Shown here: one piece after another, positions 19,365-41,657 of the stretch
How the letters are laid out: the number at the start of each line of letters is the position of its first letter
Numbering within the stretch: position 1 is the first letter of the stretch
Assembly (NCBI GenBank): GCA_963771175.1
Contig: CAVYSY010000038.1
Coordinates: 64,001-128,000, forward strand
DNA from: an uncultured delta proteobacterium
Lineage (GTDB): Bacteria; Myxococcota; Myxococcia; Myxococcales; Myxococcaceae
Length of the DNA: 64,000 nt
Direction: 5' to 3'
The notes under the pieces: generated by a model
Databases searched by the model: none
What the model saw: only the letters and a program-made list of their open reading frames with translations
Told to the model about the DNA's origin: nothing
Translations under genes and position numbers: made by a program

Positions 19365-20957
19365 TCAGGGCCGGGGCGCTTGCTCCGGGGAGGCGGACCG
19401 TACAGGCAACCGGACGTGGAAAGTGCTGCCTTCCTTCTCAATGCCCTGGGACTCGGCCCAGATACGTCCACCATGCTGCTCGATGATGCCCTGGGAGATG
19501 GTCAGCCCCAGGCCGAGACCGCCGTAGCGGGCCCCATGGGCCTGACCGAAGCGCTCGAAGATGGTCGCCAGCTTCTCCGCGGGGATGCCAACGCCGTGGT
19601 CGCGCACCTGCAGCGCCACCTCCCCGTCCTCGAGCCACGCCCGCAGCTCCACCGGTCCACCCTGGGGCGAGTAGCGGATGGCGTTGGACACCAGGTTGGT
19701 CACCACCTGCTCGATGCGCCCCGGATCGCCCCACATGAGCAGCCGCTCGGGAGCCTCCACCTTCAGCCGGTGCTCGGAGGAGAGCGCCTGCAGCCGCTCG
19801 CAGGTGGCGTGCAGCAGCGGCACCAGGTCGAACTCCTCCACCTCCAGCGACAACCGGCCCGTGAGCAGCCGGCTCACGTCCAGCAGGTCCGAGACCAGCT
19901 TCGTCATCCGGTCCACCTGCCGGTCCAACCCCTCGAAGGCCCGGCTCGTCCCGTGAGTCAGCTCGGCGCCGTATTTGCGCCTGGCGAGCTGCACCTGCAT
20001 CTTCGCCGCGGCCAGGGGCGTGCGCAGCTCGTGCGAGGCCGCGGCCAGGAAGGTGTCCTTGGCGGCATTGGCGTGGGCCAGCTCCTGCTCGGCCTGCTTC
20101 TGGTCGTCGATGTCCGTGGCGGTGACAATCCACCCGGTGATGCGCCCGCGCTCGTTGCGCTCCGGGACGGCCCGGCCCAGGTGCCAGCGGTAGCTCAGGT
20201 CACTGCGGCGGCGCAGCCGGAACTGCACCTCGAAGGGCTGGCCGGTGTGCACGGACTGGCACCAGTCCTCGTGCACCGATTGCCGATCCTCCGGGTGCAC
20301 CACCTCCGAGCGCCACAAGTCCACCACCGCCTCGGCGGGCAGGCCGGACAGCTCCGTCCAGGCCCGGTTGCCATAGCGCAGCGTCCCATCCGCGGTGGCG
20401 GCGAACACACACAGGGGCATGGCGTCGCCCAGCAGGCGGTAGCGGTATGCGCTCTCCCGCTCCAGGGCCTCGCGCTCGCGCTGGCGCAGCAGGGCCTCCT
20501 GCCGCTTGAGCTGCTCCTCCTTGATGAAGAGCTCCACGAAGACGGAGACCTTCGAGCGCAGGATTTCCGGCGCGAAGGGCTTGAGGACGTAGTCCACCGC
20601 GCCCTGTGCGTAGCCGCGGAAGACGTGCGAGGCGTCCCGGCTGCGCGCGGTGAGGAAGATGATGGGGATGAAGCGCGAGCGCTCGCGCTCCTTGATGAGC
20701 CGGGCCGTCTCGAAGCCGTCGAGCCCGGGCATCTGGACATCCAACAGGATGAGGGCGAAGTCCTCGCGCAGCAGGTGCAGGAGGGCCTCTTCGCCGGAGT
20801 GGGCCTTCACCACCTCACCCAGGTCGCCGAGGGTGGCTTCCAGGGTGAGGAGGTTGGGAGCGTGGTCGTCGACCACCAGGATGCGTGCCCGCGGCAGCTC
20901 CGACAAGACCTGGAAGCCGCCCCCCTTCCCACCCTCCGACCACGTCATCACGGTCAT
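19365..20957 (-). CDS. receiver-PAS-histidine kinase
   Basis: REC motifs ILVVDD and LLDVQMPGLDG; PAS VHPED..WHLGRA; H-box [28 protein letters not shown] overlap with the upstream kinase. Confidence 0.9.
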   Translation of the reverse strand: MTVMTWSEGGKGGGFQVLSELPRARILVVDDHAPNLLTLEATLGDLGEVVKAHSGEEALLHLLREDFALILLDVQMPGLDGFETARLIKERERSRFIPIIFLTARSRDASHVFRGYAQGAVDYVLKPFAPEILRSKVSVFVELFIKEEQLKRQEALLRQREREALERESAYRYRLLGDAMPLCVFAATADGTLRYGNRAWTELSGLPAEAVVDLWRSEVVHPEDRQSVHEDWCQSVHTGQPFEVQFRLRRRSDLSYRWHLGRAVPERNERGRITGWIVTATDIDDQKQAEQELAHANAAKDTFLAAASHELRTPLAAAKMQVQLARRKYGAELTHGTSRAFEGLDRQVDRMTKLVSDLLDVSRLLTGRLSLEVEEFDLVPLLHATCERLQALSSEHRLKVEAPERLLMWGDPGRIEQVVTNLVSNAIRYSPQGGPVELRAWLEDGEVALQVRDHGVGIPAEKLATIFERFGQAHGARYGGLGLGLTISQGIIEQHGGRIWAESQGIEKEGSTFHVRLPVRSASPEQAPRP

Positions 20958-23900
20958 TTCGCTCCCGCGCAAGGCTCTACCCATCGGCGAATCAACTCCA
21001 GCAATCGCTCGGTATCGACCGGCTTGGAGAGGTAATCGGACGCTCCCGCTTCCAGGCACTTCTCTCGGTCATCCTTGAGAGCCCGGGCGGTGATGGCGAT
21101 GACGGGCAGGGACGCCCACCGGGAGTCAGCACGGATGGCCCTCATCGCCTGGTAGCCATCCATCTCCGGCATCATGACGTCCAACAGAACCACATCCAGC
21201 TCCGGATTCTTCACCATCAAATCCATGGCGGCCCGCCCGTCCTGGGCGAAGGTCACCTGCATGCCGTGGCTCTCCAGCACGCTGGTGAGCGCGAAGATGT
21301 TGCGCGCATCGTCGTCCACCAGCAGCACCTTGCGGCCGGTGAGCGAGCGGGTGAGCTCCTTCGACTCCTCGTTCGCCACGCGCGACTGGTCCCCGACGCG
21401 GCGCAAGAAGCGGCCCACCTCGGCCACCACCGCCTCGGGCGAGCGGGCGACAGCCTCGAGCAGCACGGACTCGGCCGAGCGCCGCAGCCGCCGCTCGTCA
21501 TCCGGCAGGAGCTGCGAGCCGCTATAGAGGAGGACGGGGGGCAGCCGGGCGGGCCGGCGTACCAGCCCTACCAGGAGCTTCATCCCCCGCCCACCGGGCG
21601 AGGCGAGGTCCAAGGCCAGCACGTCCACCTCCCCGTGGTCCAGCGCCTCCATGGTGGAGGTCGACTCCAGCTCCCGCAGCTCCAGGGGCTCGCCCATGTC
21701 GATGAGCTGCTCCACGCTCTCGCGCAGCTCGGGCGTGGGGTCCACCAGCAGCAGCCGGAGGGGCGCGCCGTCGGGCTTGAGGTCCAGGTGGCTGAAGGCG
21801 CCCTGGATGGCCTCGGGAGAGAAGGGCCGGTCCAGGAAGGCGAAGCCGCCGCCGCACGAGGCGCCACGCAGACGGTCCACGCTCACCACCTGGACGGGGA
21901 TGCGGCGGGTGCGCGGGTCTCGCTTGAGTCGGTCGAGCACGGACCAGCCGTCGATGACGGGCAGGCCGAGCTGCAGGACGATGGCGTACGGCTTGAGCCG
22001 CTGGGCGAGCGAGAGCGCCACATCGCCGCGCGTGGCCACCAGCGCCTTCAGGCCGTTCTGGTGCGCGGTGGCCACCAGACCGCGGGCGAACTCCACGTCG
22101 TCCACCGCCACGAGCAGCACGCGATCATCCGCGCGCAGGTCGTCCCGGTCATCCACCAGGGGACTGAGGGTCACCGTGCCCGGCACGTCGGTGTCGGGCG
22201 GCAGCAGCTCGCGCAGCATGGGGGTGTAGTCCACGTCCATCTCGCTGGCCGGCTCGCCCCCGCGCTCGGGGCCGCTGTAGCTGCGCGGCAGGTACAGGGT
22301 GAAGATGCTGCCCGCCCCGCGCGCGCTCTTCACGCGGATTTCGCCGCCCAGCAGTCGGGCCAACTCACGGCTGATGGAGAGGCCCAGGCCCGTGCCACCA
22401 TACTTGCGGCTGGTGGTGCCGTCGGCCTGCTGGAAGGCCTCGAAGATGAGCTTCTGCTTGTCCTCGGGGATGCCGATGCCCGTGTCGATGATGGAGAAGG
22501 CCAGCACCTGGTCGGCCTCCACCAGCTCCGGGGCGGCGAAGCGCTCCTCGGTGTCCGCCATGCGGATGCGCAGCGTCACCTGGCCGGCGCTGGTGAACTT
22601 GAAGGCGTTGGAGAGCAGGTTCTTCAGGATCTGCTGCAGCCGCTTCGGATCGGTGAAGACGGTGACCGGCACCTCCGGGCCCACCTCGGTGAGGAAGCCC
22701 AGGTTCTTCTGCTCGGCCACCGGGCCGAACGTGCGCCGGGCGAAGTCCACCAGCTCGGCCAGCGCCGAGTCGCGCGGCTCCACCTGCATCTTCCCGGCCT
22801 CCACCTTGGACAGGTCGAGGATTTCATTGATGAGGGACAGCAGGTCCCCACCCGAGGAGTAGATGGTCTCCGCGTACTCCACCTGCTTGCGGCTGAGGCT
22901 GGCGTCGGAGTTGTCCGCGAGCAGCTTGGCCAGCACCAGCATGCTGTTGAGCGGCGTGCGCAGCTCGTGGGACATGTTGGCGAGGAACTCGCTCTTGTAC
23001 TTGGAGATGATCGAGAGCTGCTCGGCCTTCTCCTCCAGGGAGGCGCGCGCCTGCTCCACCTCGTGGTTGTTCTTCTCCACCTTGATGTTCTGCTGCTCGA
23101 GCAGCTTGGCCTTCTCCTCCAGCTCGAGGGCCTGGGCCTCCAGCGCCGAGTTGGAGCGCTTGAGCTCCTCCTGCTGCTGGGTGAGCTCACGCGACTGGCT
23201 CTGCAGCTCGTTGGCGAGGCTCTGCGACTGCCGCAGCAGCTCCTCGGTGCGCATGTTGGCCATGATCATGTTCAGCACCACGCCGATGCTCTCGGTGAGC
23301 TGGTCCAGGAAGATTTGATGGATGGCGCTGAACGGGTGGAAGGAGGCCAGCTCGATGACGGCCTTGACCTCGCCCTCGAAGAGGACGGGCAGGACGATGA
23401 GGTTGAGGGGGCTGGCCTCGCCCAGGCCGGAGGTGATGCGGATGTAGTCCGCCGGCACGTGGGTGAGGAGGATGGTCTTCTTCTCCAGGGCGCACTGGCC
23501 CACCACGCCCTCGCCGAGGCGGAAGCGGTTGCCCACGTTCTTGCGCTCCCGGTAGGCGTAGCTGGAGGTGAGCTTGGCCACGGGCGCGCCGTCCTCGGTG
23601 TCCATGAGGAAGAAGGCGCCGTGGTGCGCGGACACCAGGGGCGTCAGCTCGGACATGATGAGCCGGGAGACGGCCTCCAGGTTCTTCTGGCCCTGCATCA
23701 TGCCGGAGAACTTCGCGAGGTTCGTCTTCAGCCAGTCCTGCTCGGTGTTCTTCTGGGTCGTCTCCTTGAGGTTGACGATCATCTGGTTGATGTTGTCCTT
23801 CAGGGCGGCCAACTCGCCGCCGCGCATCCACCGCGATGAACCGGGTCAGGTCACCCTTCGTCACGGCGGTGGCCACATCGGAGATGGCGCGAACCTGGGA

Positions 23901-26236
23901 CGTCAGGTTGCCGGCGAGCTGATTCACGTTGTCGGTGAGCTGCCTCCAGGCCCCGCGCGCACCGGGCACCTTGGCCTGGCCACCCAGCTTGCCCTCGATG
24001 CCCACCTCGCGGGCCACCGTGGACACCTGCTGGGCGAAGGTGCCCAGCGTGTCCGTCATGCTGTTGATGGTGTCCGCCAGCGCGGCCACCTCGCCCTTCG
24101 CGTCCACGACGAGCTTCTGGGTGAGGTCGCCGTTGGCGACCGCGGTCACCACCTTGACGATGCCTCGCACCTGGGTCGTCAGGTTGCGGGCCATCAGGTT
24201 CACGTTGTCGGTGAGGTCCTTCCACGTACCGGCGACACCGGGCACACGCGCCTGGCCGCCCAGCTTGCCCTCGGTCCCCACCTCGCGAGCCACGCGGGTC
24301 ACTTCCGAGGCGAACGCGTTGAGCTGATCCACCATCGTGTTGATGGTGTCCTTCAGCTCCAGGATTTCACCCTTCGCGTCGACGGTGATCTTCTTGGACA
24401 GGTCGCCATTGGCGACCGCCGTCGTCACCTTGGCGATGTTTCGCACCTGGTTGGTCAGGTTGGAGGCCATCGAGTTCACGCTGTCGGTCAGGTCCTTCCA
24501 GACGCCGGACACGCCCTGCACCTCGGCCTGACCGCCCAGCTTTCCTTCCGTCCCCACCTCGCGAGCGACGCGGGTCACTTCCGCGGCGAACGAGCGGAGC
24601 TGGTCCACCATCGTGTTGATGGTGTTCTTCAGCTCGAGGATCTCCCCCTTCACGTCGACGGTGATCTTCTTGGACAGGTCTCCATTGGCCACCGCCGTCG
24701 TCACCAGCGCGATGTTTCGCACCTGCGCGGTGAGGTTGGAGGCCATGAAGTTCACGTTGTCCGTGAGGTCCTTCCACGTACCGGAGACGCCGGGCACGTC
24801 GGCCTGACCGCCCAGCTTCCCTTCCGTCCCCACTTCCTTGGCGACGCGGGTCACCTCACCGGCGAACGAGCGGAGCTGCTCCACCATCGTGTTGATGGTG
24901 TTCTTCAGCTCGAGCACCTCGCCCCGGGCGTCCACCGTGATCTTCTTGGACAGGTCACCGCGAGCGACGGCGGTGCTGACCTCGGCGATGTTTCGCACCT
25001 GGGCGGTCAGGTTGTTGGCGAGCAGGTTCACGTTGTCCGTGAGGTCCTTCCACGTCCCGCCACACCCGGCACATCCGCCTGGGCGCCCAGCTTGCCCTCG
25101 ACGCCCACCGTCTTGGCGACGCTGGTCACCTGGTCGGCGAAGATGCCCAGGGTCTTGGTCATGCTGTTGAGCGTGTCGGCCAGTGCGGCCACCTCGCCCT
25201 TGGCATCGACCACGAGGCGCTGGGACAGGTCACCGTTGGCGACCGCGGTCACCACCTTGACGATGCCTCGCACCTGGGTGGTGAGGTTGGAGGCCATCAG
25301 GTTCACGTTGTCCGTGAGGTCCTTCCACACGCCGGAGACGCCCGGCACGTCGGCCTGGCCGCCCAGCTTGCCCTCGGTCCCCACTTCCTTCGCGACGCGC
25401 GTCACTTCGCCCGCGAACGAGCGGAGCTGGTCCACCATCGTGTTGACGGTGTTCTTCAGCTCGAGCACCTCGCCTCGCGCGTCCACCGTAATCTTGCGCG
25501 ACAGGTCACCGCGCGCCACCGAGGTCGTCACCTCGGCGATGTTTCGCACCTGCGCGGTCAGGTTGTTGGCGAGCTGGTTCACGCTGTCGGTGAGGTCCTT
25601 CCACGTACCGGCGACACCGGGCACGCGGGCCTGACCGCCCAGCTTTCCTTCCGTACCGACCTCGCGCGCGACGCGCGTCACCTCGGCGGCGAACGAGCTG
25701 AGCTGATCCACCATCGCGTTCACGGTGGTACCGATGCGAAGGAACTCGCCCTTCACCGGCTGCCCGGGCAGGTCCAGCGCCATCTTCTGGGTCAGGTCAC
25801 CTCGCGCCACCGCGCCCAGCACGCGCGCCACCTCGGTGGTGGGCTGCACCAGGTCGGCGATGAGCGAGTTGATGGAGCCAAGGCTGGAGGCCCAGCCACC
25901 GCTCACCGGCCCGAGCGAGGCGCGCTCGGCCATCTGGCCCTCGCGGCCCACCACGCGCTCGACACGGACGAGCTCGTCCTGCATCCGCTGGTTCATCGCC
26001 ACCATGCCGTTGAAGGCGTGGGCAATCTCCGCCATGGCCGCGGGCTGCTCCTCCGGCGCCAGACGCACGGAGAAGTCGCCATAGGTGACGGCACGCAAGG
26101 ACTCCAGCAGCGTCTCGAGCGCTGCATTGCTCGCCGAGCGCCGAGGGGAATGGCCACCGCGGCGCGCGAGCGCGGTCGGCTTGCGCAGCTTCTTTCCGGT
26201 CTGGATACGGGTGGGATGCTTGGTGCGACGGTTCAC
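20954..26236 (-). CDS. poly-HAMP, GAF, histidine kinase, triple-receiver hybrid kinase (frameshifts near 25060 and 23825)
   Basis: Seven GKLG[GA]QA 92-aa repeats, GAF domain, H-box [27 protein letters not shown], three receiver-like domains; GTG start preceded by GGAG. Confidence 0.88.
23830..25800. repeat. 276-bp tandem coding repeat (poly-HAMP units)
   Basis: CCCAGCTT anchor at 23983, 24259, 24535, 24811, 25086, 25362 and 25638. Confidence 0.9.
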
Positions 26237-26540
26237 GTCCTGCTCCAGTGCGGAGGGGTTGGCGTTTGTCCCAACCCAAGGACGCTCTCCGTTCGTTCCT
26301 GCATCGACCATGCCCCGCACGAGGGCAGACGCCCGGTCGAGCGCACACGCGGCCCGGAATTCCCCGCCCCGACGTTGGGCATCCGTGAAGAGTGCTTCCA
26401 CGTCCAGCGGCCCGGCGAGCCAGCCCCCCTCCTCGCGGGCTCTCCGCGGCCTTCACGGGAGCGCGCATCCCCACGCACGGCGCCGATGGCACCGGTTTGC
26501 TCCTCGCCCGGTGCCATCGGCGTCTTTTTTCACCGGACGC

Positions 26541-29878: not shown

Positions 29879-31563
29879 CTACCGTGGGAACGGCGAGCGC
29901 TCCTCGGCTCCCGCGAAGGCGATCAGCGCGCCCGCGGTGGCATGGGCATCGCCCTCATCGGAGTCCGTCCCCGTCGTGCCATCCGACAGTCGACCCTCGG
30001 ACTGCTGGTGCCTGACGAGCAACGTCCAGGAGGGCCTCGTGTGCGCCGCCTCCGGCCTCACCCGCGCACTGGAGACAGAAGGCCACCTCCGCCGCCAGGT
30101 CCACATGGCCCTGCTCCACCAGCCAGGGGGTGGCCACCAGCAACTCCTCCGTCCACGCCGCCGCGCGCGAGTCCCGGAGCGGGGCGCGCAGGTAGTGGGT
30201 GTCCAGCAGGTACAGGTGCGTGAGCCAGTAGAGGTCCACCAGGTGCGACATGTCCCGGTAGGCGCGCTCGGGGACGAGCAGGCGCACGTCCAGTCCACAC
30301 GAGGCGGCCATCTCTCCCAGCAGCCACGCATGGATGCCGTGGCCCTCGTCGTCGATCGACTCCAGGTAGGCGCGCAGGGCGGACGGCTCCAGGGGAGCGT
30401 GAGGCAGACCCCGCTCGCGGCGCACGTACCAGGCGTCCACCCGGGCCATGCCCACCTCGGGATCCAACCCGGGAGGAAGCGCCAGGGGGACCTCCGCCAG
30501 CGCGGCCACCGCCGACTCCAGTGTGGGCCCCAACCCTCGCCGTGCGAAGGCGCCGGGCGCGTGACCCTCCAGCATGTGCAGCGTCAGCGCGCGCAACGCC
30601 CGTGCCTCATCTCCCTCGCCCTCCGTCAGCGAGAGGAAGGCCCGCAGTGCGCGATCCACCTCATCCGTCCTCGGGGAAGCCGGAGGCGAGGGAGGCCCCG
30701 ACAGAAGGAAGAGGGACGTGGCATCCCGGGTGAAGGCGGGGCTACCGGGCATGTCGTGCACCGCGTCCGCCAGCACCGCGCTCGCGGCCGACGCGGCGTG
30801 CAAGGCCCGCGAGTAGCGCTCGCGGAAGGTGCGTCCCTCCACCTCCACGCGGTAGCGGTCCAACCGCCGGGCTCCGGCCTCCGCGGCGAGCGCGGCCTGA
30901 TGCCCACTCTTGAAGGTGAGGACGAGTGGCACGTCCGGGGGCGGCTCCACCGGCCGGACCGGCAGTGCGGCGGCGCGGGTCAGCTCCGCGAGCACCTCCT
31001 CGGAGGAACGCGAGCGGGCCCGCGTGACGGAGAGGGCCACCTTGGTGTGCACATACCCCACGCGGCCCTCGAGCCCCGCTTGCAGCACGTCATCTCCCGG
31101 AGACGAACACCGCCGGCACCCCGGCCTCCGCCGCGAGCGCCAGCACGAGGTCCGCCTCCGACAGGGCCCGGCCGGCGCACGTCCACGCGCCGAGCACGTC
31201 CACGGTGTGCGCACCAAAGCCCGCCGAGCCAGCCGCGGCATGCATGCCCACACAGGCCACCGCCTGAACGTCCTCGAAGACTTCCGGTGCGTACGCGTCC
31301 TCGGGGAGGAAGCAGGGCTCGGCGGCGGGGTGTAGCGCCTCGGGCAGCAGGTTCATCTCGCCGGAGCCGGACAGGTGGCTGTCACTCACCCGCACCCGCT
31401 GGAAGCCGGCGGCGAGCAGGCCCTCGACCGCGGCGTTCACCTCCGCCGTCAGGAGGGCCTGGGCGCGTCCGTACTCAGGAGTCCCGGAGATGAGCGCGCC
31501 GGGAGTATCCACGCCGGCCACGCCCTCGAGGTCGATGATGAGCAGCGCCCGGCGCGAGGTCAT
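29879..31563 (-). CDS. M55 (DppA D-aminopeptidase-like) metallopeptidase with a long C-terminal extension; frameshifts near 31095 and 29990
   Basis: IDLEGVAG, EVNAAVEG, SDSH, GMHAAAG, HT and VFVSGDD motifs; extension with YWLTHLYL..DLAAEVAFCL. Confidence 0.7.
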
Positions 31564-33046: not shown

Positions 33047-34189
33047 CTACGGGTGCGCGGGAGCCGACGCCGCCCACTGCCAGGCGGTGCCCCGGTGCAG
33101 GGCGGCGTAGATGATGTCCCTCAGCTCGTTGCACTCGGAGTGGGTGAGCGAGCGGTCGAGCGCGCGCAGCACCACGCGCAACAGCACGTTCTTCTGCCCG
33201 GGTGAGATGCCGAGCCGCTTCACGGCGGCGGGAGGCAGCGCCTCACAGGGCGTCTCCGAGAGTACCTCGACGGTCTCCACCATCTCGGCCCGTGAGCCCA
33301 GGGCGGCCCGAACCCCATCTCCGAGCTCCTCGGAGGTGGCGTCGCCCTCGAGCACCAGCGACAAGTCACGACGCACCTCGGGCATGGAGGACACCTCGCG
33401 GTACGGCTCCAGGTCGAGCATCTGCGAGGCGATGCGTGGCTCCTCTGCGCGCAGCAGGCGGATGTCATCGAGGCCCTTGCGCAGCATGAGGATGCGATCC
33501 ATCCCGAGCCCCATGGCGAGCCCCGAGGTGCGCGCCGTGTCCAGCCCGCTGTCGGCGAGCAGCGCCGGGTTGGCCAGGCCGCACTCGCCGATCTCCACCC
33601 ATTCGGCTCCGTGGCGGACGTCGATCTGGAGCCCATCGGTGGTGTACGGGTGCTGGGCGGGAGTGATGCGCGGCTCGCGCCCGGGGAGCAGGGCGCGCAC
33701 CACGGTCTCCACCATGAGGCGCAGCTCCTCGACGCCGAGCGGCGCGCCCGTGCGGATGCGCCAGAGGTCCATCTGGTGGGGCTCGCCGGTGTGCAACCGG
33801 TCGATGCAGTCGCGGCGGTAGACGAGCCCGGGACAGGCGAGCAGCACGTCCTCGGGAGACTGGGGTACGGCGGCGAGCTGGCGCAGCAGCGGCGGAATCA
33901 TCGCCGAGGTCTGGGTGCGCAGCAGCGCGGTGTCACAGACGTAGCGGGTGTAGCGGGCATCGCGAGCGGCGCCCTCGGGCGGGTAGCGCAGCCGGTCGTA
34001 GTTGTCGGCGACGGAGACGATGGGGCTCTGCCGGTGGAGGCGCACGTCGCAGCGCCACGCGAGGCGCAGGGAGGAGAGCACGTCATCGATGAGGCGCTGC
34101 ATGGCATGAGGGCCGGCAGCGGGGTCGGTCAGGTCACGAATGGACAGGGCACGGCGGACAGCATCGGTGCTGAGAATGCAGACGGACAT
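33047..34189 (-). CDS. monomeric PheRS-like class II ligase (PheS-type catalytic domain plus FDX-ACB domain; resembles the 'PheS-related mystery ligase' family)
   Basis: NYDRL, LLRTQTSA, motif 2 VYRRDCIDRLH..PHQMD, HPYT, WVEIGECG, motif 3 GLAMGLGMDR, DDIRLL, RRDLSL (start of FDX-ACB), DRSLT..E.N. Confidence 0.85.
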   Translation of the reverse strand: MSVCILSTDAVRRALSIRDLTDPAAGPHAMQRLIDDVLSSLRLAWRCDVRLHRQSPIVSVADNYDRLRYPPEGAARDARYTRYVCDTALLRTQTSAMIPPLLRQLAAVPQSPEDVLLACPGLVYRRDCIDRLHTGEPHQMDLWRIRTGAPLGVEELRLMVETVVRALLPGREPRITPAQHPYTTDGLQIDVRHGAEWVEIGECGLANPALLADSGLDTARTSGLAMGLGMDRILMLRKGLDDIRLLRAEEPRIASQMLDLEPYREVSSMPEVRRDLSLVLEGDATSEELGDGVRAALGSRAEMVETVEVLSETPCEALPPAAVKRLGISPGQKNVLLRVVLRALDRSLTHSECNELRDIIYAALHRGTAWQWAASAPAHP

Positions 34190-34340
34190 GGGAAGTCTCT
34201 CGGACTGGAGTGGAAGGAAACGGCTCCAGGTGACGCCCGGTCCTCGAGGGGAGGAGCTGGCGCCACCACGCACGGCGCCCCCCGAACCCCTGGTCCAGGC
34301 GAGCGTCACGCCGAGAGGCGATCCGCCGAGAGAGAACGGG

Positions 34341-34421
34341 CTAGCGACGCAGCACGGCCTCCCTGAGCCTGGTGGGGCTCGGGGGGCGGCTAAATCGACG
34401 CTGGCACGTGAGGAGAAGCAT
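34341..34421 (-). CDS. putative leader peptide MLLLTCQRRFSRPPSPTRLREAVLRR (26 aa)
   Basis: ATG at 34421, 10 nt after a -10 box; in-frame TAG at 34341; overlaps one arm of an alternative RNA helix. Confidence 0.55.
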   Translation of the reverse strand: MLLLTCQRRFSRPPSPTRLREAVLRR

Positions 34422-34431
34422 CGCGGTCAGA

Positions 34432-34460
34432 AAGGTAAACGCGGTTCGGGCCGAATGCAA
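34432..34460 (-). promoter_or_regulatory. putative sigma-70 promoter
   Basis: TTGCAT-17 bp-TACCTT on the minus strand, directly upstream of the leader ORF. Confidence 0.6.
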
Positions 34461-34472
34461 TCCGGGCCCCGC

Positions 34473-35036
34473 TCAGACCTCGACGAAACGTGTGCCGGTG
34501 ATGCCCTCCTGCTCCATGGCCAGCTTGAGATCCTCGGAGATGATGAGGGCCACGCGCCAACCCCAGGGGCGGAAGATATGCGCGTCCCCCACCTTCGTCG
34601 GGTCGATGCGCAGGCCCGAAACAATCCGGTACTGTCCTACCTTTTCTGGCTCATCATCCTCGGGCGTCCAGAGCACCACCCGTCTGCTCCCGGCCTCGTC
34701 TACGCAACGAGTGATGCGCAGCGCATTGAGGATGAAATAGGGCGCCTCGTGCCCCTCCACCCGAGCAGGAATGAACTGCACATCCTGGACACGTAGCCGC
34801 TCGAAGATCTGAACGACGCGGCCATGGACGACGGGGATGGAGAAGGCGGCCCAGCAGTAGTCCAGCGAGTCTCCGGGAATGTCGAGTGGGAATCGCGGTA
34901 CGCACCCCAGCTCGAGCACCCTCCCATCCTTGAACTGCCAGGGGTCGAGTTCCTGCCCCTGCTCGTCGACAGGAGTTCCCAGATGCCACCGCGTATGGGA
35001 TTGCCTGTCGTCCATCAGCTCGAAATACCGGGTCAT
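34473..35036 (-). CDS. Imm11/DUF1629-like immunity protein, copy A
   Basis: RWHLGTP..DPWQF..DVQFIPARV..YFILN..RC.DE..LRIDP..IFRPWGW..LIISE; directly downstream of an AHH toxin. Confidence 0.8.
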   Translation of the reverse strand: MTRYFELMDDRQSHTRWHLGTPVDEQGQELDPWQFKDGRVLELGCVPRFPLDIPGDSLDYCWAAFSIPVVHGRVVQIFERLRVQDVQFIPARVEGHEAPYFILNALRITRCVDEAGSRRVVLWTPEDDEPEKVGQYRIVSGLRIDPTKVGDAHIFRPWGWRVALIISEDLKLAMEQEGITGTRFVEV

Positions 35037-35053
35037 GCGCTTCGCTCCCATTG

Positions 35054-36367
35054 TCACCAGGTCTTCGTCGCCCACCGATGGAGCGAGGACCCCGGAGTAC
35101 ATACCTCGTCCGCCAGCTCCTTGAGTGTTCGCACCAGCTTGCTCTTGCATTGTGAAACGGTCTGGCAGCCACGGAGTGCTGCTTCTAGCCTTTGCATGAC
35201 CTCCGTATGGTATTCCACCGGGTGAGGACCCTTGTGGCCCTTGAGGTAGACGAGGTTCTCCGCTGCGTCCAGGCTCATCCCCGCCTTGGCGAAGAGCTTC
35301 TCGAACAGGGGCGTCCACGGCCCACCGGACTGCGTCGAGGTTTCGTTCTTGTTGGTGGCGAGGTGGTGCCAGTGGTGGCCGTCCTTCTTCTCGGAGCCAT
35401 CGGTGCACGCGCTGCCCACCGCGGCAGCCGCCGTGCCCGCCGCCACTCCCGTGACGATGATGGTGCCATCCGCCGCCATCTGCACCGTCGTCGCCCCCGC
35501 CACGGACAGCCCCTCGGCCATGGCGTACCGGGGAGGCCCCAGCAACGCGCCCAGTCCTCCCTCGGGCACCTGGGGCAGCCCCCTGGCGAGCCCCATGCTG
35601 GCCACCACCATCAGCACCCGCAGCCCCGTGCCTCCCATCGCCTTGCCGAAGCGCTCCGCCGCCGCTTCGAGCTCCTGCACCGTCCTGGCCGCCTCCGCTT
35701 CCTCGTACAGCCGCAGGCACGCACGGGCGAAATGGGTGAGCTCCAGCGCCCCCACCACGAAGGCCAGTCGCAGCGTCAATGCCGTCACGAAGGCCTTGCT
35801 GAACAGCGGCTCGGGCACCAGCCACGCCCCGAAGTACACCAATACCGACAGGGCGACACTGGACAGGAAGACGGGCGAGGAGAACAACTCCTGGGCCGCC
35901 TCGCGCACTCCCGCGCCCATGTAGCGGGGAGAGAGCTTCAGGGCCAGGAAGAGGCGGCTCTGCTCCAATGACCGCGGCATGGGTAGCAGCGGCGGGCCAA
36001 ACCGGGACACGTACTCCTCCCGCAGCCGTGATTCCCACTCCGCCGGCTGGCCTTCTCCCGCCCCAGCCGACACCAGGACGAACCGGGGCCGAGACCGGGG
36101 CCTCTCCGTCAGTCGGAAGGACTCATGGAAGGCCGCGAGGACCGTCCGCGCCTCCTGCACCCTCAGTCGCTCCAGGACCGGGTCAGGGGCCACCGGCTCG
36201 AAGTCGAGCCGCAATGCGCCACCAGACAGCTCACTCGCCCTCACCGCGCTCGGCTCCGCCTGCTGTCTCCGCTCGGGAAGCGGCCCCTCCGGCGATGTGG
36301 CGCACGAGAGGGGCAACAGCAGCAACAGGGCCATGGCCATGCGCGGCAAGGCAGAAGCTCTCTTCAT
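35054..36367 (-). CDS. polymorphic toxin lipoprotein with C-terminal AHH nuclease (SitA-like), copy A
   Basis: Lipobox PLSC; hydrophobic mid-region; WHHLATNKN, GGPWTP, ENL and GHKGPHP.EYH motifs. Confidence 0.8.
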   Translation of the reverse strand: MKRASALPRMAMALLLLLPLSCATSPEGPLPERRQQAEPSAVRASELSGGALRLDFEPVAPDPVLERLRVQEARTVLAAFHESFRLTERPRSRPRFVLVSAGAGEGQPAEWESRLREEYVSRFGPPLLPMPRSLEQSRLFLALKLSPRYMGAGVREAAQELFSSPVFLSSVALSVLVYFGAWLVPEPLFSKAFVTALTLRLAFVVGALELTHFARACLRLYEEAEAARTVQELEAAAERFGKAMGGTGLRVLMVVASMGLARGLPQVPEGGLGALLGPPRYAMAEGLSVAGATTVQMAADGTIIVTGVAAGTAAAAVGSACTDGSEKKDGHHWHHLATNKNETSTQSGGPWTPLFEKLFAKAGMSLDAAENLVYLKGHKGPHPVEYHTEVMQRLEAALRGCQTVSQCKSKLVRTLKELADEVCTPGSSLHRWATKTW

Positions 36368-36453
36368 GACGCGGCAGCATGCACGGTCCTCGGTTGTCGC
36401 ACCATGCGGCCGAGTCTACGCACCGCCTTGAATTTCAAGGTCATCGCGTTCGC

Positions 36454-37017
36454 TCACACCTCGACGAACCGGGTGCCGGTGATGCCCTCCTGCTCCAGGG
36501 CCTGCTTGAGGTCCTCTGAGATGATGAGGGCCACGCGCCAACCCCAGGGACGGAAGATATGCGCGTCCTCCACCTTCGTCGGGTCGATGCGCATCCTGTG
36601 GACAACCCGGTACTCCCCCAACTTGTCCGGGCGATTGTCCTCGGGCTTCCAGTACCGCACTTCCGCGCACCGGGCGTCATCGATGCATCGGATGATTCGC
36701 AGGGCATTGAGAATGAACCGGGGCTCCTCGTGGCCTTCCACCCTGGCGGGGATGAACTGCACATCCTGGACACGTTGCCTCTCGAAGATCTGCACGATGC
36801 GTCCATGGACCACGGGGATGGAGAAGGCGGCCCAGCAGTAATCCAACGCGTCTCCGGGAGTGTCGAGCGGGAAGCGAGGCACGCACCCCAGCTCGAGCAC
36901 CCTCCCTTTCTTGAACTGCCAGGGGTCGACTTCCTGCCCATGCTCATCGACAGGAGTTCCCAGATGCCACCGTGTGTGGGATTGCCTATCGTCCATCAGC
37001 TCGAAATACCGGGTCAT
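36454..37017 (-). CDS. Imm11/DUF1629-like immunity protein, copy B
   Basis: Paralog of 34473-35036 with the same length (564 bp) and a diverged central segment. Confidence 0.8.
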   Translation of the reverse strand: MTRYFELMDDRQSHTRWHLGTPVDEHGQEVDPWQFKKGRVLELGCVPRFPLDTPGDALDYCWAAFSIPVVHGRIVQIFERQRVQDVQFIPARVEGHEEPRFILNALRIIRCIDDARCAEVRYWKPEDNRPDKLGEYRVVHRMRIDPTKVEDAHIFRPWGWRVALIISEDLKQALEQEGITGTRFVEV

Positions 37018-37037
37018 GCGCTTTGTCCCCAGCTCCT

Positions 37038-38488
37038 CTAGGTCTTCGTCACCAACCGATGGAGTAGGGACCCTGGAGTGCATACGTCATCTGCCAACGT
37101 CCTGAGCTCTTCCACGAACCTGCTCCTACATTGTGAAACGGACCCACAGTCCTCGAGCGCCTCCTCAAGCCTCCGGAAGACCGCCGCATGATACTCCTCG
37201 GGATGGGGCCCCTTGTGGCCCTTGAGGTAGATGAGGTTCTCCGCTGCGTCCAGGCTCATCCCCGCCTTGGCGAAGAGCTTCTCGAGCAGGGGCGTCCACG
37301 GCCCACCGGACTGCGTCGAGGTTTCGTTCTTGTTGGTGGCGAGGTGGTGCCAGTGGTGGCCGTCCTTCTTCTCGGAGCCATCGGCGCACGCGCTACCCAC
37401 CGCGGCAGCCGCCGTGCCCGCCGCCACACCCGTGACGATGATGGTGCCATCCGCCGCCATCTGCACCGTCGTCGCCCCCGCCACGGACACCCCCTCGGCC
37501 ATGGCGTACCGGGGAGGCCCCAGCAACGCGCCCAGTCCTCCCTCGGGCACCTGGGGCAGCCCCCTGGCGAGCCCCATGCTGGCCACCACCATCAGCACCC
37601 GCAGCCCCGTGCCTCCCATCGCCTTGCCGAAGCGCTCCGCCGCCGCTTCGAGCTCCTGCACCGTCCTGGCCGCCTCCGCTTCCTCGTACAGCCGCAGGCA
37701 CGCACGGGCGAAATGGGTGAGCTCCAGCGCCCCCACCACGAAGGCCAGTCGCAGCGTCAATGCCGTCACGAAGGCCTTGCTGAACAGCGGCTCGGGCACC
37801 AGCCACGCCCCGAAGTACACCAAAACCGATAGGGCGACACTGGACAGGAAGACGGGCGAGGAGAACAACTCCTGGGCCGCCTCGCGCACTCCCCGCGCCC
37901 ATGTAGCCTGAGCCAGGAGTGCATAGATCGTCTGCAATCCTCTTGAGCTCATCAACGAGGCTGCTCCGTCATTGTGCCATGGTCTGGCACCGTGACACTG
38001 CAATCTGAGCCAGCGATAGATTTCCGGGGAGAGGACGCTTCAGGGCCAGGAAGAGGCGGTCTCCGCTGCGTCCAGGCTCATGACCGCGGCATGGGTAGCA
38101 GCGGCGTAGGCCAAACCGGGACACGTGAGTTCTCCTCCCGCAGGCGTGATTCCCACTGGCGGCCGGCCTTCTCCCGCCAGCCGATACAAGACGAACCGGG
38201 GCCGAGACCGGGGCCTCTCCGTCAGTCGGAAGGACTCATGGAAGGCCGCGAGGACCGTCCGCGCCTCCTGCACCGTCAGTCGCTCCAGGACCGCCGGTCA
38301 GGGGCCACCGGCGAAGTCGAGCCGCAATGCGCACCAGACACTCACTCGGGCCCTGGCAGCCCCTGGCGCTCGGCTCCGCCTGCTGTCTGCCGCTCGGGAA
38401 GCGGCCCCTCCGGCGATGTGGCGCACGAGAGGGGCAACAGCAGCAACAGGGCCATGGCCATGCGCGGCAAAGCAGAAGCTCTCTTCAT
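37038..38488 (-). pseudogene. AHH toxin lipoprotein copy B; 5' part disrupted (real decay or assembly noise)
   Basis: Nearly identical to copy A over ~37210-37900; ~118-bp unrelated insert at 37908-38025 and many indels at 38025-38400. Confidence 0.65.
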
Positions 38489-38538: not shown

Positions 38539-39177
38539 CTACCGCGTCCCGAAGAGCCGATCTCCCGCGTCACCCAGACCCGGGAGGATGTAGCCGTGCT
38601 CGTCGAGCTTCTCATCCACCGCGGCGGTGAAGACGTGCACGTCCGGGTGGTGCTCGCGCAGGTTCGCCAGACCCTCGGGGCACGCCAGCAGGCAGACGAA
38701 ACGCAGACTGCCCGGCTTGTTGCGCTTGATGCGGTTGAGCGCCGCCACCGCCGAGTTCCCCGTCGCCAGCATCGGGTCGCACACGATGACGTCTCGGTCC
38801 GCGAGCTGGTTCGGAACCTTGTAGTAGTACTCCACCGCGCCCAGCGTCTTCGGGTCCCGGTACAGACCGATGTGGCCCACGCGGGCGCTCGGCACCAGTT
38901 GCAGCATGCCGTCCAGGATGCCCTGGCCCGCGCGCAGGATGGCCACCAGCACCAGCTTCTTTCCATCCAGCACCGGCGCCACCGTCTGCATCATCGGCGT
39001 CTCGATGGTCTCCTCGCGCACCTTCAGGTCCCGCATCGCCTCGTAGGCGAGCAGCAGGGAAATCTCCTGCAGCAGCGCGCGGAAGGAAGCCGTGCTCGTG
39101 TCCTTGCGCCGCATCAGCGTCAACTTGTGCTTCACCAGTGGGTGGTCCACCACCGTGCAGTTTTCCGGGTACGTCAT
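38539..39177 (-). CDS. upp: uracil phosphoribosyltransferase
   Basis: [47 protein letters not shown]. Confidence 0.95.
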
Positions 39178-39220
39178 GGCTCCCTCCTTCGTCGACTCGA
39201 CTGAATAGAAAAGAAGACCT

Positions 39221-40411
39221 TCAGAACACCGTACCGTCGCTCTCGATGCGGATGGGCGGCGTGCCCCCCTTCCGCTTCTCCGCGGCGATGCGCCTCCCGG
39301 CGCTCCACGTCCCCCCTTGCAGCACCTTCGCCAGCGGCAGCTCCTCCGCCGTCATTCCCAGCCGCTCGCGCACCCGCTTCGCCACCTCGTCCAGCAGCGC
39401 CACCGTCAGCGCCCGCCACTCCACGATGGGCTCCGCTCCCGGCGCGAAGGCGTCCGTGAGCAGCCGCGAGTCCCTCGGAACCAGCAGGCCCAGGTCCACC
39501 AGCAGCCCGCCATTGCGGTACTCGGGCAGCCCCGTCAGCGCGTCCAGGTCCGTCACCTGGATGCCGCCTTCCTCCAGCGGCTCCAGCAGCGAGTACGTCA
39601 GCCACTGCGACAGCTTGTGGAAGGGCACCAGCGACTCCGGGCTGCCCTCGGCCCCCAGCGCCGAGTGCGACCACACGTCGCCCAGGTTCACCCCGTCCAG
39701 CGTGATGCGCCCCGGCCAGATGGAGCCCAGCGACTCCAGCACCCGACCCAGCACCTCCGCCGCGGGCACTCGAGGACCCCGCGCCGCGAGCAGGTCGAAG
39801 AGCGCTCCGGGCCTCGGCAGCGCCTTCCCCAGTCCGCGCAACAGCGCGAGCCGTCCCTCCAGCCCCGCCAGCGGGTTGACCTCCGTCACCTGGAAGCCCC
39901 GCGCCAGTGCATCGAGGCTCAGCCCCTTCAGCCCCTCCGCGTCCGCGCGCAACGGTTGGCGTGGGTCCGAGGAGAACGCGCCCGCGAGGAACATGCGGAA
40001 GCTCGCCACGGCCAGGCCCTCGGAGCGCGCGTAGGTGTCACCACCGGGCTCCACGTACTTCCACGTGGGCCCGCTGCCCGCGTCCAGCAGTACGCTGGTG
40101 ACGACCAGGTCCAGCTTCGCCCGGGCCCGCTCGGCGGGTGGCAGCGAGGCCAGGCGCGCATCCAGCTCCGCGTTGCGCCGCACCCCCCCCACGTCGAAGT
40201 GCCCCCAGCGACTGTGCACGGGAATCGCCAGCGAGGGGTACGCCGCGCGGGTGACGTCCAGCACGTAGTCCGCCACGGCCGGCAGCCGCTCCATGTCCAC
40301 GCGGAAGTGCTTCAGCTTGCCGGCGAGCCCCAGCTCCAGCAGGGCCCGGCAGCGCTCGCGAATGGCTCGCGGGCTCCGCAGGTACGCGACGGTGGCGGAG
40401 GGCTCAGGCAT
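39221..40411 (-). CDS. URC4/urg3 family protein (DUF1688)
   Basis: [74 protein letters not shown]. Confidence 0.88.
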
Positions 40412-41657
40412 CGAGTGCCCTGCCCTTCACCTGCTCCAGCTCGTCCTTCGAGGCCACCTTGCCGTTGGTGAAGTAGCCGGCGGCCTTCTTCGCCTCCATC
40501 TCCACCTTGGCGTCGGCGGGGATGAGCTCCTCCGGGATCGGCACGCGCTCGAGGATTTCGATGCCCGAGCGGACGATGGCGTCGTGCTTCATGTCGCTCA
40601 TGGACACGAAGCGGTGGATGCGGGTGATGCCCAGCCAGTGCAGCGCGTCCGGCATCAGCTCCTGGAAGCGCATGTCCTGCACGCCCGCGACGCACTCGGT
40701 GCGGTGGAAGTAGGTGGCCGCCGAGTCGCCGCCCTCCTGCCGCTTGCGCGCGTTGTAGACGAGGAACTTCGTCACCTCGCCCAGCGCGCGGCCTTCCTTG
40801 CGCGAGTAGACGATGACGCCCGCTCCGTTCTCCTGCGCCGTCTGGATGCACACCTCGATGCCGTGCGTGAGGTACGGCCGGCACGTGCAGATGTCGCTGC
40901 CGAACACGTCCGAGCCGTTGCACTCGTCGTGCACGCGCACCGCCAGCGGCACGTCGGGGTCGGCGATGGTGTCCATGTCGCCGAAGAAGTAGAGGGTGAG
41001 CCCACCGATGGGCGGCAGGAACACCTCCAGGTCCGAGCGGGTGATGAGCTCGGGAAACATGCCGCCGGTCTGCTCGAAGAGCCCGCGGCGCAGCGCCGCC
41101 TCGGTCAGGCCGAAGCGCTTGGCGATGCCGGGCAGGTACCACACCGGCTCGACCGCGGCCTTCACCACGCTCACGTCGCCGTTGGCGCAGAGAATCTTCC
41201 CGTCCGGCTTGAGGCGGCCAGCGGTGATGGCGTCGCGCAGCTCGGGCATGTTGATGTGCGCGCGGGTGATGGCGATGGTGGGCCGGATGTCCATGCCCTG
41301 CTCCAGCAAGTTCCGGAAGGCCTGCGGGGCCACCGCCCCCCACGGGTCCATCGAGACGATGCGGTCGGGGTCCGCCCACGCCTTGTGGGGTCCAATCTGC
41401 ACGGCCGGCGCGGTGTTGGTGAGGTCCGCCCGGTGGTCCTGCGTGAGCTGCCCGGCGGCCACCGCGACGGCCCGGTAGATGGCATACGAGCCCGAGTGCG
41501 TGCCGATGACGTTGCGGTGCACGGGCTCCGTCAGCGTGGCGATGACGGGTCCCCGGCGCAGCGGCTCGGGCTCTCCCCAACGGATGGGGAGGGTCTGCGA
41601 GTCGCTATCCGGATGAGAGGTGAGACGGATGTGGTTGACGGGCTTCTTGTCGGACAT
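40404..41657 (-). CDS. GTP cyclohydrolase II-like protein of the URC1/urg1 type
   Basis: N-terminal RNVIGTHSGSYAIYRA; RVHDECNGSDVFGSDICTCRPYL; RKEGRALGEVTKFLVYNARK; EMEAKKAAGY. Confidence 0.88.
   Translation of the reverse strand: MSDKKPVNHIRLTSHPDSDSQTLPIRWGEPEPLRRGPVIATLTEPVHRNVIGTHSGSYAIYRAVAVAAGQLTQDHRADLTNTAPAVQIGPHKAWADPDRIVSMDPWGAVAPQAFRNLLEQGMDIRPTIAITRAHINMPELRDAITAGRLKPDGKILCANGDVSVVKAAVEPVWYLPGIAKRFGLTEAALRRGLFEQTGGMFPELITRSDLEVFLPPIGGLTLYFFGDMDTIADPDVPLAVRVHDECNGSDVFGSDICTCRPYLTHGIEVCIQTAQENGAGVIVYSRKEGRALGEVTKFLVYNARKRQEGGDSAATYFHRTECVAGVQDMRFQELMPDALHWLGITRIHRFVSMSDMKHDAIVRSGIEILERVPIPEELIPADAKVEMEAKKAAGYFTNGKVASKDELEQVKGRALDA

Follow-up and report, generated by a model that had tools for sequence, protein, structure and literature searches.

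The short open reading frame (ORF) that precedes srmL in the window, meaning the whole stretch of 64,000 nucleotides analysed here, is best read as the leader of a ribosome-mediated attenuator that responds to charged tRNA-Phe, and srmL itself, which encodes a paralogue of phenylalanyl-tRNA synthetase (PheRS) without a single phenylalanine, as a backup synthetase for a blocked housekeeping PheRS; the probability of this combined reading is put at roughly 0.6. That Phe-tRNA is the signal sensed is very probable, and it is reasonably likely that SrmL charges tRNA-Phe with phenylalanine while escaping whatever blocks PheST. The argument starts from features that are legible in the sequence, namely the leader frame, the fixed Phe codon and its distance to region 1, the Phe-free protein, coexistence with pheS and mobility. 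The features of the window are collected in Table 1.

Table 1. The srmL leader and its gene, with positions as numbered in the 64,000-nucleotide window (SD, Shine-Dalgarno).
Feature	Position	Strand	Remark
-35-like hexamer TTGCAT	34455..34460	-	starts at 34460; 3/6 consensus
-10-like hexamer TACCTT	34432..34437	-	starts at 34437; spacer 17 nt; ends 10 nt before leader ATG
Leader ORF, 26 codons, single Phe codon	34341..34421	-	ATG at 34421
Sensor codons CGA-TTT (Arg9-Phe10)	34392..34397	-	both rare in the genome
Region 1, C-rich, 3-4 nt past the Phe codon	34374..34388	-	predicted partner: region 2 or region 4
Region 2, within the leader ORF	34354..34372	-	predicted partners: region 1, or region 3 plus first anti-SD copy
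First anti-SD copy (helix arm of the first-pass annotation)	34326..34333	-	variable among Archangium relatives
Second anti-SD copy CCTCTCGG	34311..34318	-	unchanged in 11 Archangium-group rows, read from alignment A1
Region 3, overlapping the 5' arm of the 10-bp helix	34292..34309	-	predicted partners: region 2, region 4 or 34230-34239
Region 4, G-rich	34276..34290	-	predicted partner: region 1 (ON) or region 3 (OFF)
3' arm of the 10-bp helix	34230..34239	-	conservation only partial
srmL ribosome-binding site CCGAGAGA	34196..34203	-	SD-like
srmL, 380 aa, zero Phe	33047..34189	-	ATG at 34189; PheRS catalytic core plus FDX-ACB

The layout described in the first-pass annotation was confirmed, both for TTGCAT-N17-TACCTT followed 10 nt later by an ATG (34460, 34437 and 34421) and for the 26-codon ORF (34421-34341), its peptide and the 151 nt from its end to the ligase ATG. 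Conservation of this small ORF was assessed in 82 distinct homologous loci with 300 nt of upstream DNA, drawn from Myxococcota, Gemmatimonadota, Actinomycetota, Cyanobacteriota, Pseudomonadota and Bacteroidota (seven phyla when Alpha- and Gammaproteobacteria are counted apart). The motif CGATTT-N6-CCC occurs within the 300 nt before the gene in 76/82 loci, and a relaxed form in 80/82, whereas all four control windows gave 0/82 and shuffling gave 0.27 on average, although relatedness among the loci means that p-values for such counts are overstated. An in-frame ATG or GTG lies at most 45 nt upstream of the relaxed motif in all 80 cases (24 and 13 in the other two frames), and with ATG alone as the start the counts are 64 in the CGA frame versus 4 and 2, so the proposed upstream ORF is indeed conserved in homologues. 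The start lies 2-11 codons ahead of the Arg codon. The sensor codon is the first Phe codon of the leader in 78/80 cases, and the only one in 55/80 leaders and in the window.

A pattern centred on Phe and combined with an in-frame start recovers 79/82 genome loci (controls 0, shuffle mean 3.4) and 54/61 metagenome loci (controls 0, shuffle mean 2.4), the latter being those with enough upstream DNA among the best 80 of 537 loci, a set partly dependent on the first. In the 54 metagenome leaders (from the best 80 of 537 loci), Phe is encoded by TTT 53 times and by TTC once; the position before it holds CGA 37 times, a different Arg codon 3 times and a non-Arg codon 14 times. Because the preceding codon varies in these leaders and the Phe codon stays, Phe is the fixed feature of the leader, with Arg and the PP pair both variable. 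In the genome loci CGA and TTT are each found in 79/80. Both codons are scarce in the source genome, TTT making up 2.4% of Phe codons and CGA 5.0% of Arg codons, and CGA-TTT accounts for 8 of 4,299 Arg-Phe pairs; a slow P-site context as the cause of the CGA preference before UUU is a guess. No NCBIfam match was obtained for the leader peptide, whose sequence and length vary while the nucleotide pairings described below are kept.

Support for the putative promoter is solely positional, as it falls below the threshold of a consensus scan (0 sites). Among 36 non-redundant loci, 20 have a TANNNT box that ends 5-8 nt ahead of an in-frame leader start (0-3 in control windows), and 23 of 47 metagenome loci taken from the best 80 of 537 have one at that distance (controls 0-5); TTG-starting hexamers at comparable spacing were noted on visual inspection of several homologues. 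An SD-like word precedes srmL in 31/36 loci and the leader in 3/36. Since the box is so close to the start and an SD-like word is so rarely found before the leader, translation of the leader is likely to be leaderless in general, and near-leaderless in the window, where the box is 10 nt away and the transcription start is predicted 3-4 nt before the leader ATG. The 36 loci are a set of 37 minus L005 (genome G004), whose leader changes frame past the Phe codon and continues without the normal stop, which may reflect an assembly error or a constitutive allele. Two further ideas were rejected: joining of the leader to srmL by programmed frameshifting or as a fusion, since the motif and the srmL ATG do not keep a constant frame, and use of the same leader at other genes of the genome, where 8 CGATTT-N6-CC[CG] sites have an in-frame start, only the srmL site is convincing and those before other genes, for example dnaE- and mutS-like ORFs, were judged to be chance.

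The first-pass annotation had placed three helices in this leader, two of them nested and hiding the ligase start, and the third crossing them. All can be drawn: 34326-34333/34196-34203 forms 8/8 Watson-Crick pairs and 34374-34387/34277-34290 forms 14 pairs with one G-U, while 34300-34309/34230-34239 has its 10 pairs but includes a G-U that had gone unmentioned. As a fixed structure, however, the three helices found no backing in covariation, scoring 0.091 against 0.091 for shuffles (301/500 as high) in a 26-sequence Myxococcaceae alignment where 69% of the SD-helix cells are paired. Pairing within a locus beats pairing between loci for anti-SD:SD (30/36), 2:3 (32/35), 1:4 (33/36) and 1:2 (29/36). 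The 2:3 pairing contains 29 doubly changed cells versus 9.0, with 0/500 shuffles as high, a score obtained on the same alignment that gave the structure and with few clades behind it. Several pair types are exchanged in the 1:4 arms between positions +16 and +20, as read from a best-register table that by design inflates pairing. Two candidates were dropped as general elements, namely the 3:4 hairpin, which is no better than shuffles (16/35 loci), and pairing of region 2 with the anti-SD, conserved in 10/36 only. On these models a trp-like switch, 1:2 versus 2:3 plus 1:4, fits better than the exact three-helix arrangement.

Both folds, and their dependence on ribosome position, are predicted. 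In the window, the 1:2 hairpin (34390-34354) is predicted at -21.1 kcal/mol and the pairing of region 3 with region 4 at -23.0 kcal/mol including flanking pairs; in the predicted alternative fold 1:4 encloses 2:3 and the anti-SD ends up in a loop. When folding was repeated with a ribosome placed on the leader and the RNA 5' of it blocked, the median predicted cost of opening the srmL SD rose from 7.7 kcal/mol (ribosome at the Phe codon) to 10.4 kcal/mol (ribosome past region 2), and was higher in the latter state in 32/36 loci, in agreement with the control by ribosome position that had been proposed. The corresponding costs are 7.2 and 9.5 kcal/mol in metagenome loci from the best 80 of 537 (higher in 39/46), and 2.3-3.6 and 5.1-5.6 kcal/mol in the window. 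The equilibrium fold of the window without a ribosome is already open (3.5 kcal/mol), and therefore the OFF state would need a leader ribosome or co-transcriptional folding. No U-tract follows region 4 in the window, and no intrinsic terminator with a U-tract was found in the window leader; a U-tract does follow this G-run in 12/80 relatives, some of which therefore likely act on transcription. Taken with the conserved frame, the own-locus pairings and the SD-opening costs support the earlier proposal that a translated leader with alternative helices controls the ligase.

The first-pass annotation, which had called the ligase PheRS-like, missed the named family, the absence of Phe and pairings 1:2 and 2:3. 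The protein belongs to NCBIfam NF051887, 'PheS-related mystery ligase SrmL' (522.7 bits, cut-off 300, with all of profile positions 1-349 covered), a family name that states no function. It is a single-chain paralogue of the mitochondrial type, with the catalytic core fused to an FDX-ACB anticodon-binding domain (30.6 bits, just below the 31.1 cut-off) and no editing domain. The AlphaFold2 model (pLDDT 91.7) finds human mitochondrial PheRS as its best Foldseek matches, with TM-scores of 0.71-0.77 for the top six, and the score against TIGR00469 is below cut-off (109 versus 258). Class II motifs, the ACB motif, the ATP-binding arginines and motif 3 are kept, as are the motif-2 Arg, Gln, Ser/Thr and gate Ala of the pocket, the Ala at the para-position gate being present in 84/84 aligned sequences. 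Where PheS has Phe, SrmL has other residues: FPF becomes HPY, the motif-2 Phe becomes Pro (82/84) and AFG becomes AMG. In addition, all 84 differ from PheS by Glu to Asp in motif 2, Gly to Glu before CG and Glu to Asp in motif 3. These three pocket changes, two Glu to Asp and one Gly to Glu, are not explained by Phe avoidance, and the substrate of SrmL may therefore differ from that of PheS. A full-text literature search, with most subscription journals outside its scope, turned up no description of SrmL, of its leader or of a PheRS without Phe.

With 0 Phe in 380 aa, SrmL is the sole such product among 2,647 ORFs of at least 300 aa in the genome, filtered by codon-position GC (background Phe 3.3%, binomial 2.8e-6). 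Phe is likewise absent from 78/84 locus homologues and 111/120 database homologues, and from 66/78 metagenome copies from the best 80 of 537 loci, the other 12 having one. Among 51 distant near-full-length relatives, picked from the 150 matches listed, the number of Phe residues is 0 in 20, 1 in 5, 2-4 in 4 and 6-24 in 22, and Phe-free members reach down to about 31% identity. P0132, P0133, P0157, P0163, P0177 and others keep many SrmL-type motifs despite 6-24 Phe (22/51). A quick-mode tree of 63 rows leaves 28 of 60 inner branches open, and no order of events is therefore claimed from it. The PheA-like enzyme of the same genome retains 11 Phe.

A canonical pheS followed by a pheT-sized ORF is also present in the genome, and pheS was found in 5/5 distant srmL carriers. 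The distribution of srmL is patchy: it occurs in 15/41 relatives, including 14/18 of the genus, and in 6/301, 1/301 and 1/401 genomes of three other phylum samples, seed genomes included. Archangium species are the closest named relatives. In the window srmL is likely to be monocistronic since the next gene is convergent. Of 105 mechanically picked neighbouring ORFs, many lacked a Pfam match and some are probably shadow ORFs; the only families shared outside close kin were a glyoxalase-like one (two actinobacterial loci) and TPR genes (two myxobacterial loci). An operon or biosynthetic cluster was rejected accordingly, the 105 ORFs holding no conserved partner and no recurrent genes for modification, proteases or export.

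Plasmid copies in Azotobacter and Glutamicibacter retain the CGA-TTT leader. On the Glutamicibacter plasmid (L121:7320-19080) intact srmL and its leader lie between cmx and tet(33), and on a Corynebacterium diphtheriae plasmid (L210) erm(X) and tet(65) flank a partial match to query residues 159-367, giving resistance-gene surroundings for 2/3 plasmid matches. Furthermore, family members are found in viral sequences, a 359-aa gene product with zero Phe in an uncultured phage record of 634,780 bp and 30% GC (LR745206.1, L122:7871-9080) and a 366-aa one, again with zero Phe, in an IMG/VR viral contig of 180,807 bp and 29% GC (L119:3739-5092), which also carries part of a permuted tmRNA. Their leaders contain 4 (phage record) and 6 (viral contig) Phe codons followed by U-tailed hairpins, which we take to be the classical pheM/pheL layout. 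The multi-Phe viral leaders, the fixed Phe codon and the Phe-free SrmL support the earlier suggestion of Phe-tRNA shortage as the signal.

The proposed switch would work as follows. With plentiful Phe-tRNA, the ribosome would cross regions 1 and 2 to the stop codon of the leader, from where the downstream RNA would pair anti-SD with SD and keep srmL off; in the 12/80 relatives with a U-tract, a U-tailed 3:4 terminator may replace or add to SD sequestration. With UUU in an empty A site the ribosome would wait, leaving region 2 and most of region 1 free, so that 2:3 and 1:4 could form, the anti-SD would be looped away and srmL would be translated. Needing no Phe-tRNA for its own synthesis, SrmL could be made even in a near-total block and, by recharging tRNA-Phe, would shut off its own switch. 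As the trigger, a block of housekeeping PheRS is favoured over plain Phe starvation because the total loss of Phe suggests a near-total block, because the PheA-like Phe-biosynthetic enzyme, with its 11 Phe, is not depleted, and because housekeeping PheRS would edit Tyr-tRNA-Phe, which it can recapture after release according to PMC7373986. Zinc shortage was also considered, as housekeeping PheS in this genome has a CxxC..CxxC insert that SrmL lacks, but is weakened as a trigger since the insert is also absent from 3/5 parsed housekeeping PheS of other srmL carriers.

A broader reading is offered tentatively, at a little under even odds: srmL and its leader would form a mobile, self-inducing rescue cassette against a natural agent that shuts off Phe-tRNA formation, the enzyme purged of Phe, a single rare UUU sensing the block, and large phages carrying the enzyme as a counter-defence. 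The agent is hypothetical and would be an antibiotic, a toxin or an anti-phage effector. In general terms, PMC5388404 states that microbes make toxins against aminoacyl-tRNA synthetases, including PheRS, and that gene transfer disseminates resistant paralogues.

Two other explanations keep the Phe switch and change the task of SrmL. It could answer true Phe starvation, either by placing a surrogate such as Tyr, Leu or Met on tRNA-Phe or by scavenging Phe with much higher affinity; such starvation would stall the leader too, the lack of an editing domain would suit a surrogate, and the invariant pocket changes exceed Phe avoidance. This is nonetheless unlikely given the undepleted PheA-like enzyme, the position of plasmid copies among resistance genes, the editing of released Tyr-tRNA-Phe by housekeeping PheRS and the retention in 84/84 sequences of the Ala that gates the para position of the PheRS pocket (both roles as given in PMC7373986). 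Slightly less likely again is that SrmL acts on tRNA-Phe that a toxin or anti-phage defence effector has damaged, repairing or otherwise handling it, or that it joins an amino acid to a different acceptor. Some synthetase paralogues do have repair-like or other-acceptor roles, the viral copies own Phe attenuators, and an ACB motif is kept beside a remodelled pocket, but no partner gene travels with srmL, the overall fold equals that of a working monomeric PheRS, and the ATP-binding arginines and motif 3 are kept.

The remaining explanations would change the signal or the meaning of the small ORF. The first-pass annotation had named PP and R-x-R as stalling motifs and considered induction by translation-targeting antibiotics, and in an erm-type arrest-peptide system a ribosome-binding antibiotic would stall the leader at RRFSRPP or R-x-R. 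The strong preference for Arg-Phe, the predicted SD sequestration and the plasmid copies near cmx, tet and erm genes would suit this, but the motifs do not hold up, with PP in 13 of 36 non-redundant leaders and Arg two codons past Phe in 15 of 36. With a non-Arg codon before Phe in 14/54 metagenome leaders (from the best 80 of 537 loci), RRFSR is fixed in its Phe and variable in its arginines. No arrest motif is conserved, the start lies 2-11 codons before the Arg codon, viral leaders have several Phe codons, and an arrest peptide gives no rationale for a Phe-free product, all of which makes the explanation very improbable. Equally improbable is that CGAUUU..GCCCC acts as an RNA-level site, either a tRNA-binding riboswitch or a protein operator, with the small ORF incidental; synonymous change is indeed nearly absent (CGA 79/80, TTT 79/80), but in-frame starts at variable distance are found in 80/80, the spacing of the -10 box suits leaderless translation, the CGA position is free in the metagenome set (best 80 of 537) while the Phe frame stays, and there is no Rfam match. 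The least probable, at the level of an outside chance, is the earlier alternative that the 26-residue peptide is the substrate of the adjoining ligase in the manner of a RiPP: the peptide varies in sequence and length although the RNA retains its pairings, the neighbourhood has no recurring genes for modification, proteases or export, and the enzyme retains a tRNA anticodon-binding domain.

The preferred reading, a Phe-tRNA attenuator before a Phe-free backup synthetase, has several known counterparts. E. coli pheM-pheST and pheL-pheA are leader-peptide attenuators (Rfam Phe_leader), and the srmL leader resembles them in placing a Phe codon and predicted alternative pairings ahead of a gene related to PheRS. 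The two viral srmL leaders look to be of the same type and are the only ones with a cluster of Phe codons. In contrast, the window leader has one Phe codon, a probable (near-)leaderless start, no U-tailed terminator and no Rfam match, SD sequestration is its likely output, and it stands before an accessory paralogue that is free of Phe. Rfam gave 0 matches in the window, T-box models included, and none at the srmL leaders of the viral (L119, L122) and L120 loci. In translational attenuators of the erm/cat type a leader ORF and an anti-SD:SD helix control translation; the srmL leader likewise combines a leader ORF with an srmL SD in a predicted switchable helix, but it lacks a conserved arrest peptide and its conserved feature is the Phe codon. 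By the tests applied, the srmL leader falls outside the Rfam Phe_leader, T-box and erm arrest-peptide families, and the system represents a variant form of leader-peptide attenuation, coupled to a synthetase paralogue that is unusual in being Phe-free.

Streptomyces trpRS1, described by Vecchione and Sello in 2010, is reportedly an auxiliary indolmycin-resistant TrpRS under ribosome-mediated attenuation. Like it, srmL would be a putative self-regulating accessory synthetase beside a housekeeping copy, with a cognate-codon leader and a patchy, mobile distribution; unlike it, srmL differs in amino acid and class, and its inducing agent is hypothetical. We know of no report of complete loss of the cognate residue from the trpRS1 enzyme. 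The part of PMC9437257 consulted also lists trpRS1 resistance and makes no mention of PheRS. SrmL resembles PheRS-M/FARS2 (PDB 3CMQ) in joining a catalytic core to FDX-ACB without an editing domain and differs from it in having about 20% identity, a remodelled pocket, zero Phe, an occurrence in bacteria and viruses and an accessory role. AARS Online lists PheRS-A, -B and -M only, as far as the consulted part of PMC11580382 goes.

With this reading a 'mystery ligase' family gains a concrete, testable role and a built-in assay. The loss of every Phe across very distant relatives, AT-rich viruses included, points to strong selection by something that stops the charging of tRNA-Phe and, as PheRS is a drug target, both the agent and the escape route matter. 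If the rescue-cassette reading is true, the leader would be a ready reporter for finding that agent. An attenuator with one sensor codon and a near-leaderless start, conserved across seven phyla, would in addition offer a compact model for the sensing of tRNA charging by a single codon, and SrmL may bear on the origin of the single-chain mitochondrial PheRS.

Several observations concern the surroundings of srmL. Upstream of it, 34473-38003 (minus strand) holds two tandem AHH-nuclease/SitA5-like polymorphic toxin cassettes with an Imm11 immunity gene; the leader promoter begins 12 nt past the last Imm11 stop, and an Imm11 gene also precedes srmL in the Archangium locus L038. Apparent frameshifts occur in a D-aminopeptidase-like gene and a HAMP-repeat kinase-like gene (window 29955-31563 and 20954-26401) and in an ihfA-like gene (G000:C46 near 37643), which suggests indel errors of this assembly; the leader and srmL are intact. 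Genes for a UPRTase, a DUF1688 protein and a GTP-cyclohydrolase-like protein stand in a row at 38539-41657 (minus strand), resembling the URC uracil-catabolism cluster. Elsewhere in the genome (G000:C26:380045-381301), an array of 13 tRNA genes includes a second, divergent tRNA-Phe(GAA).
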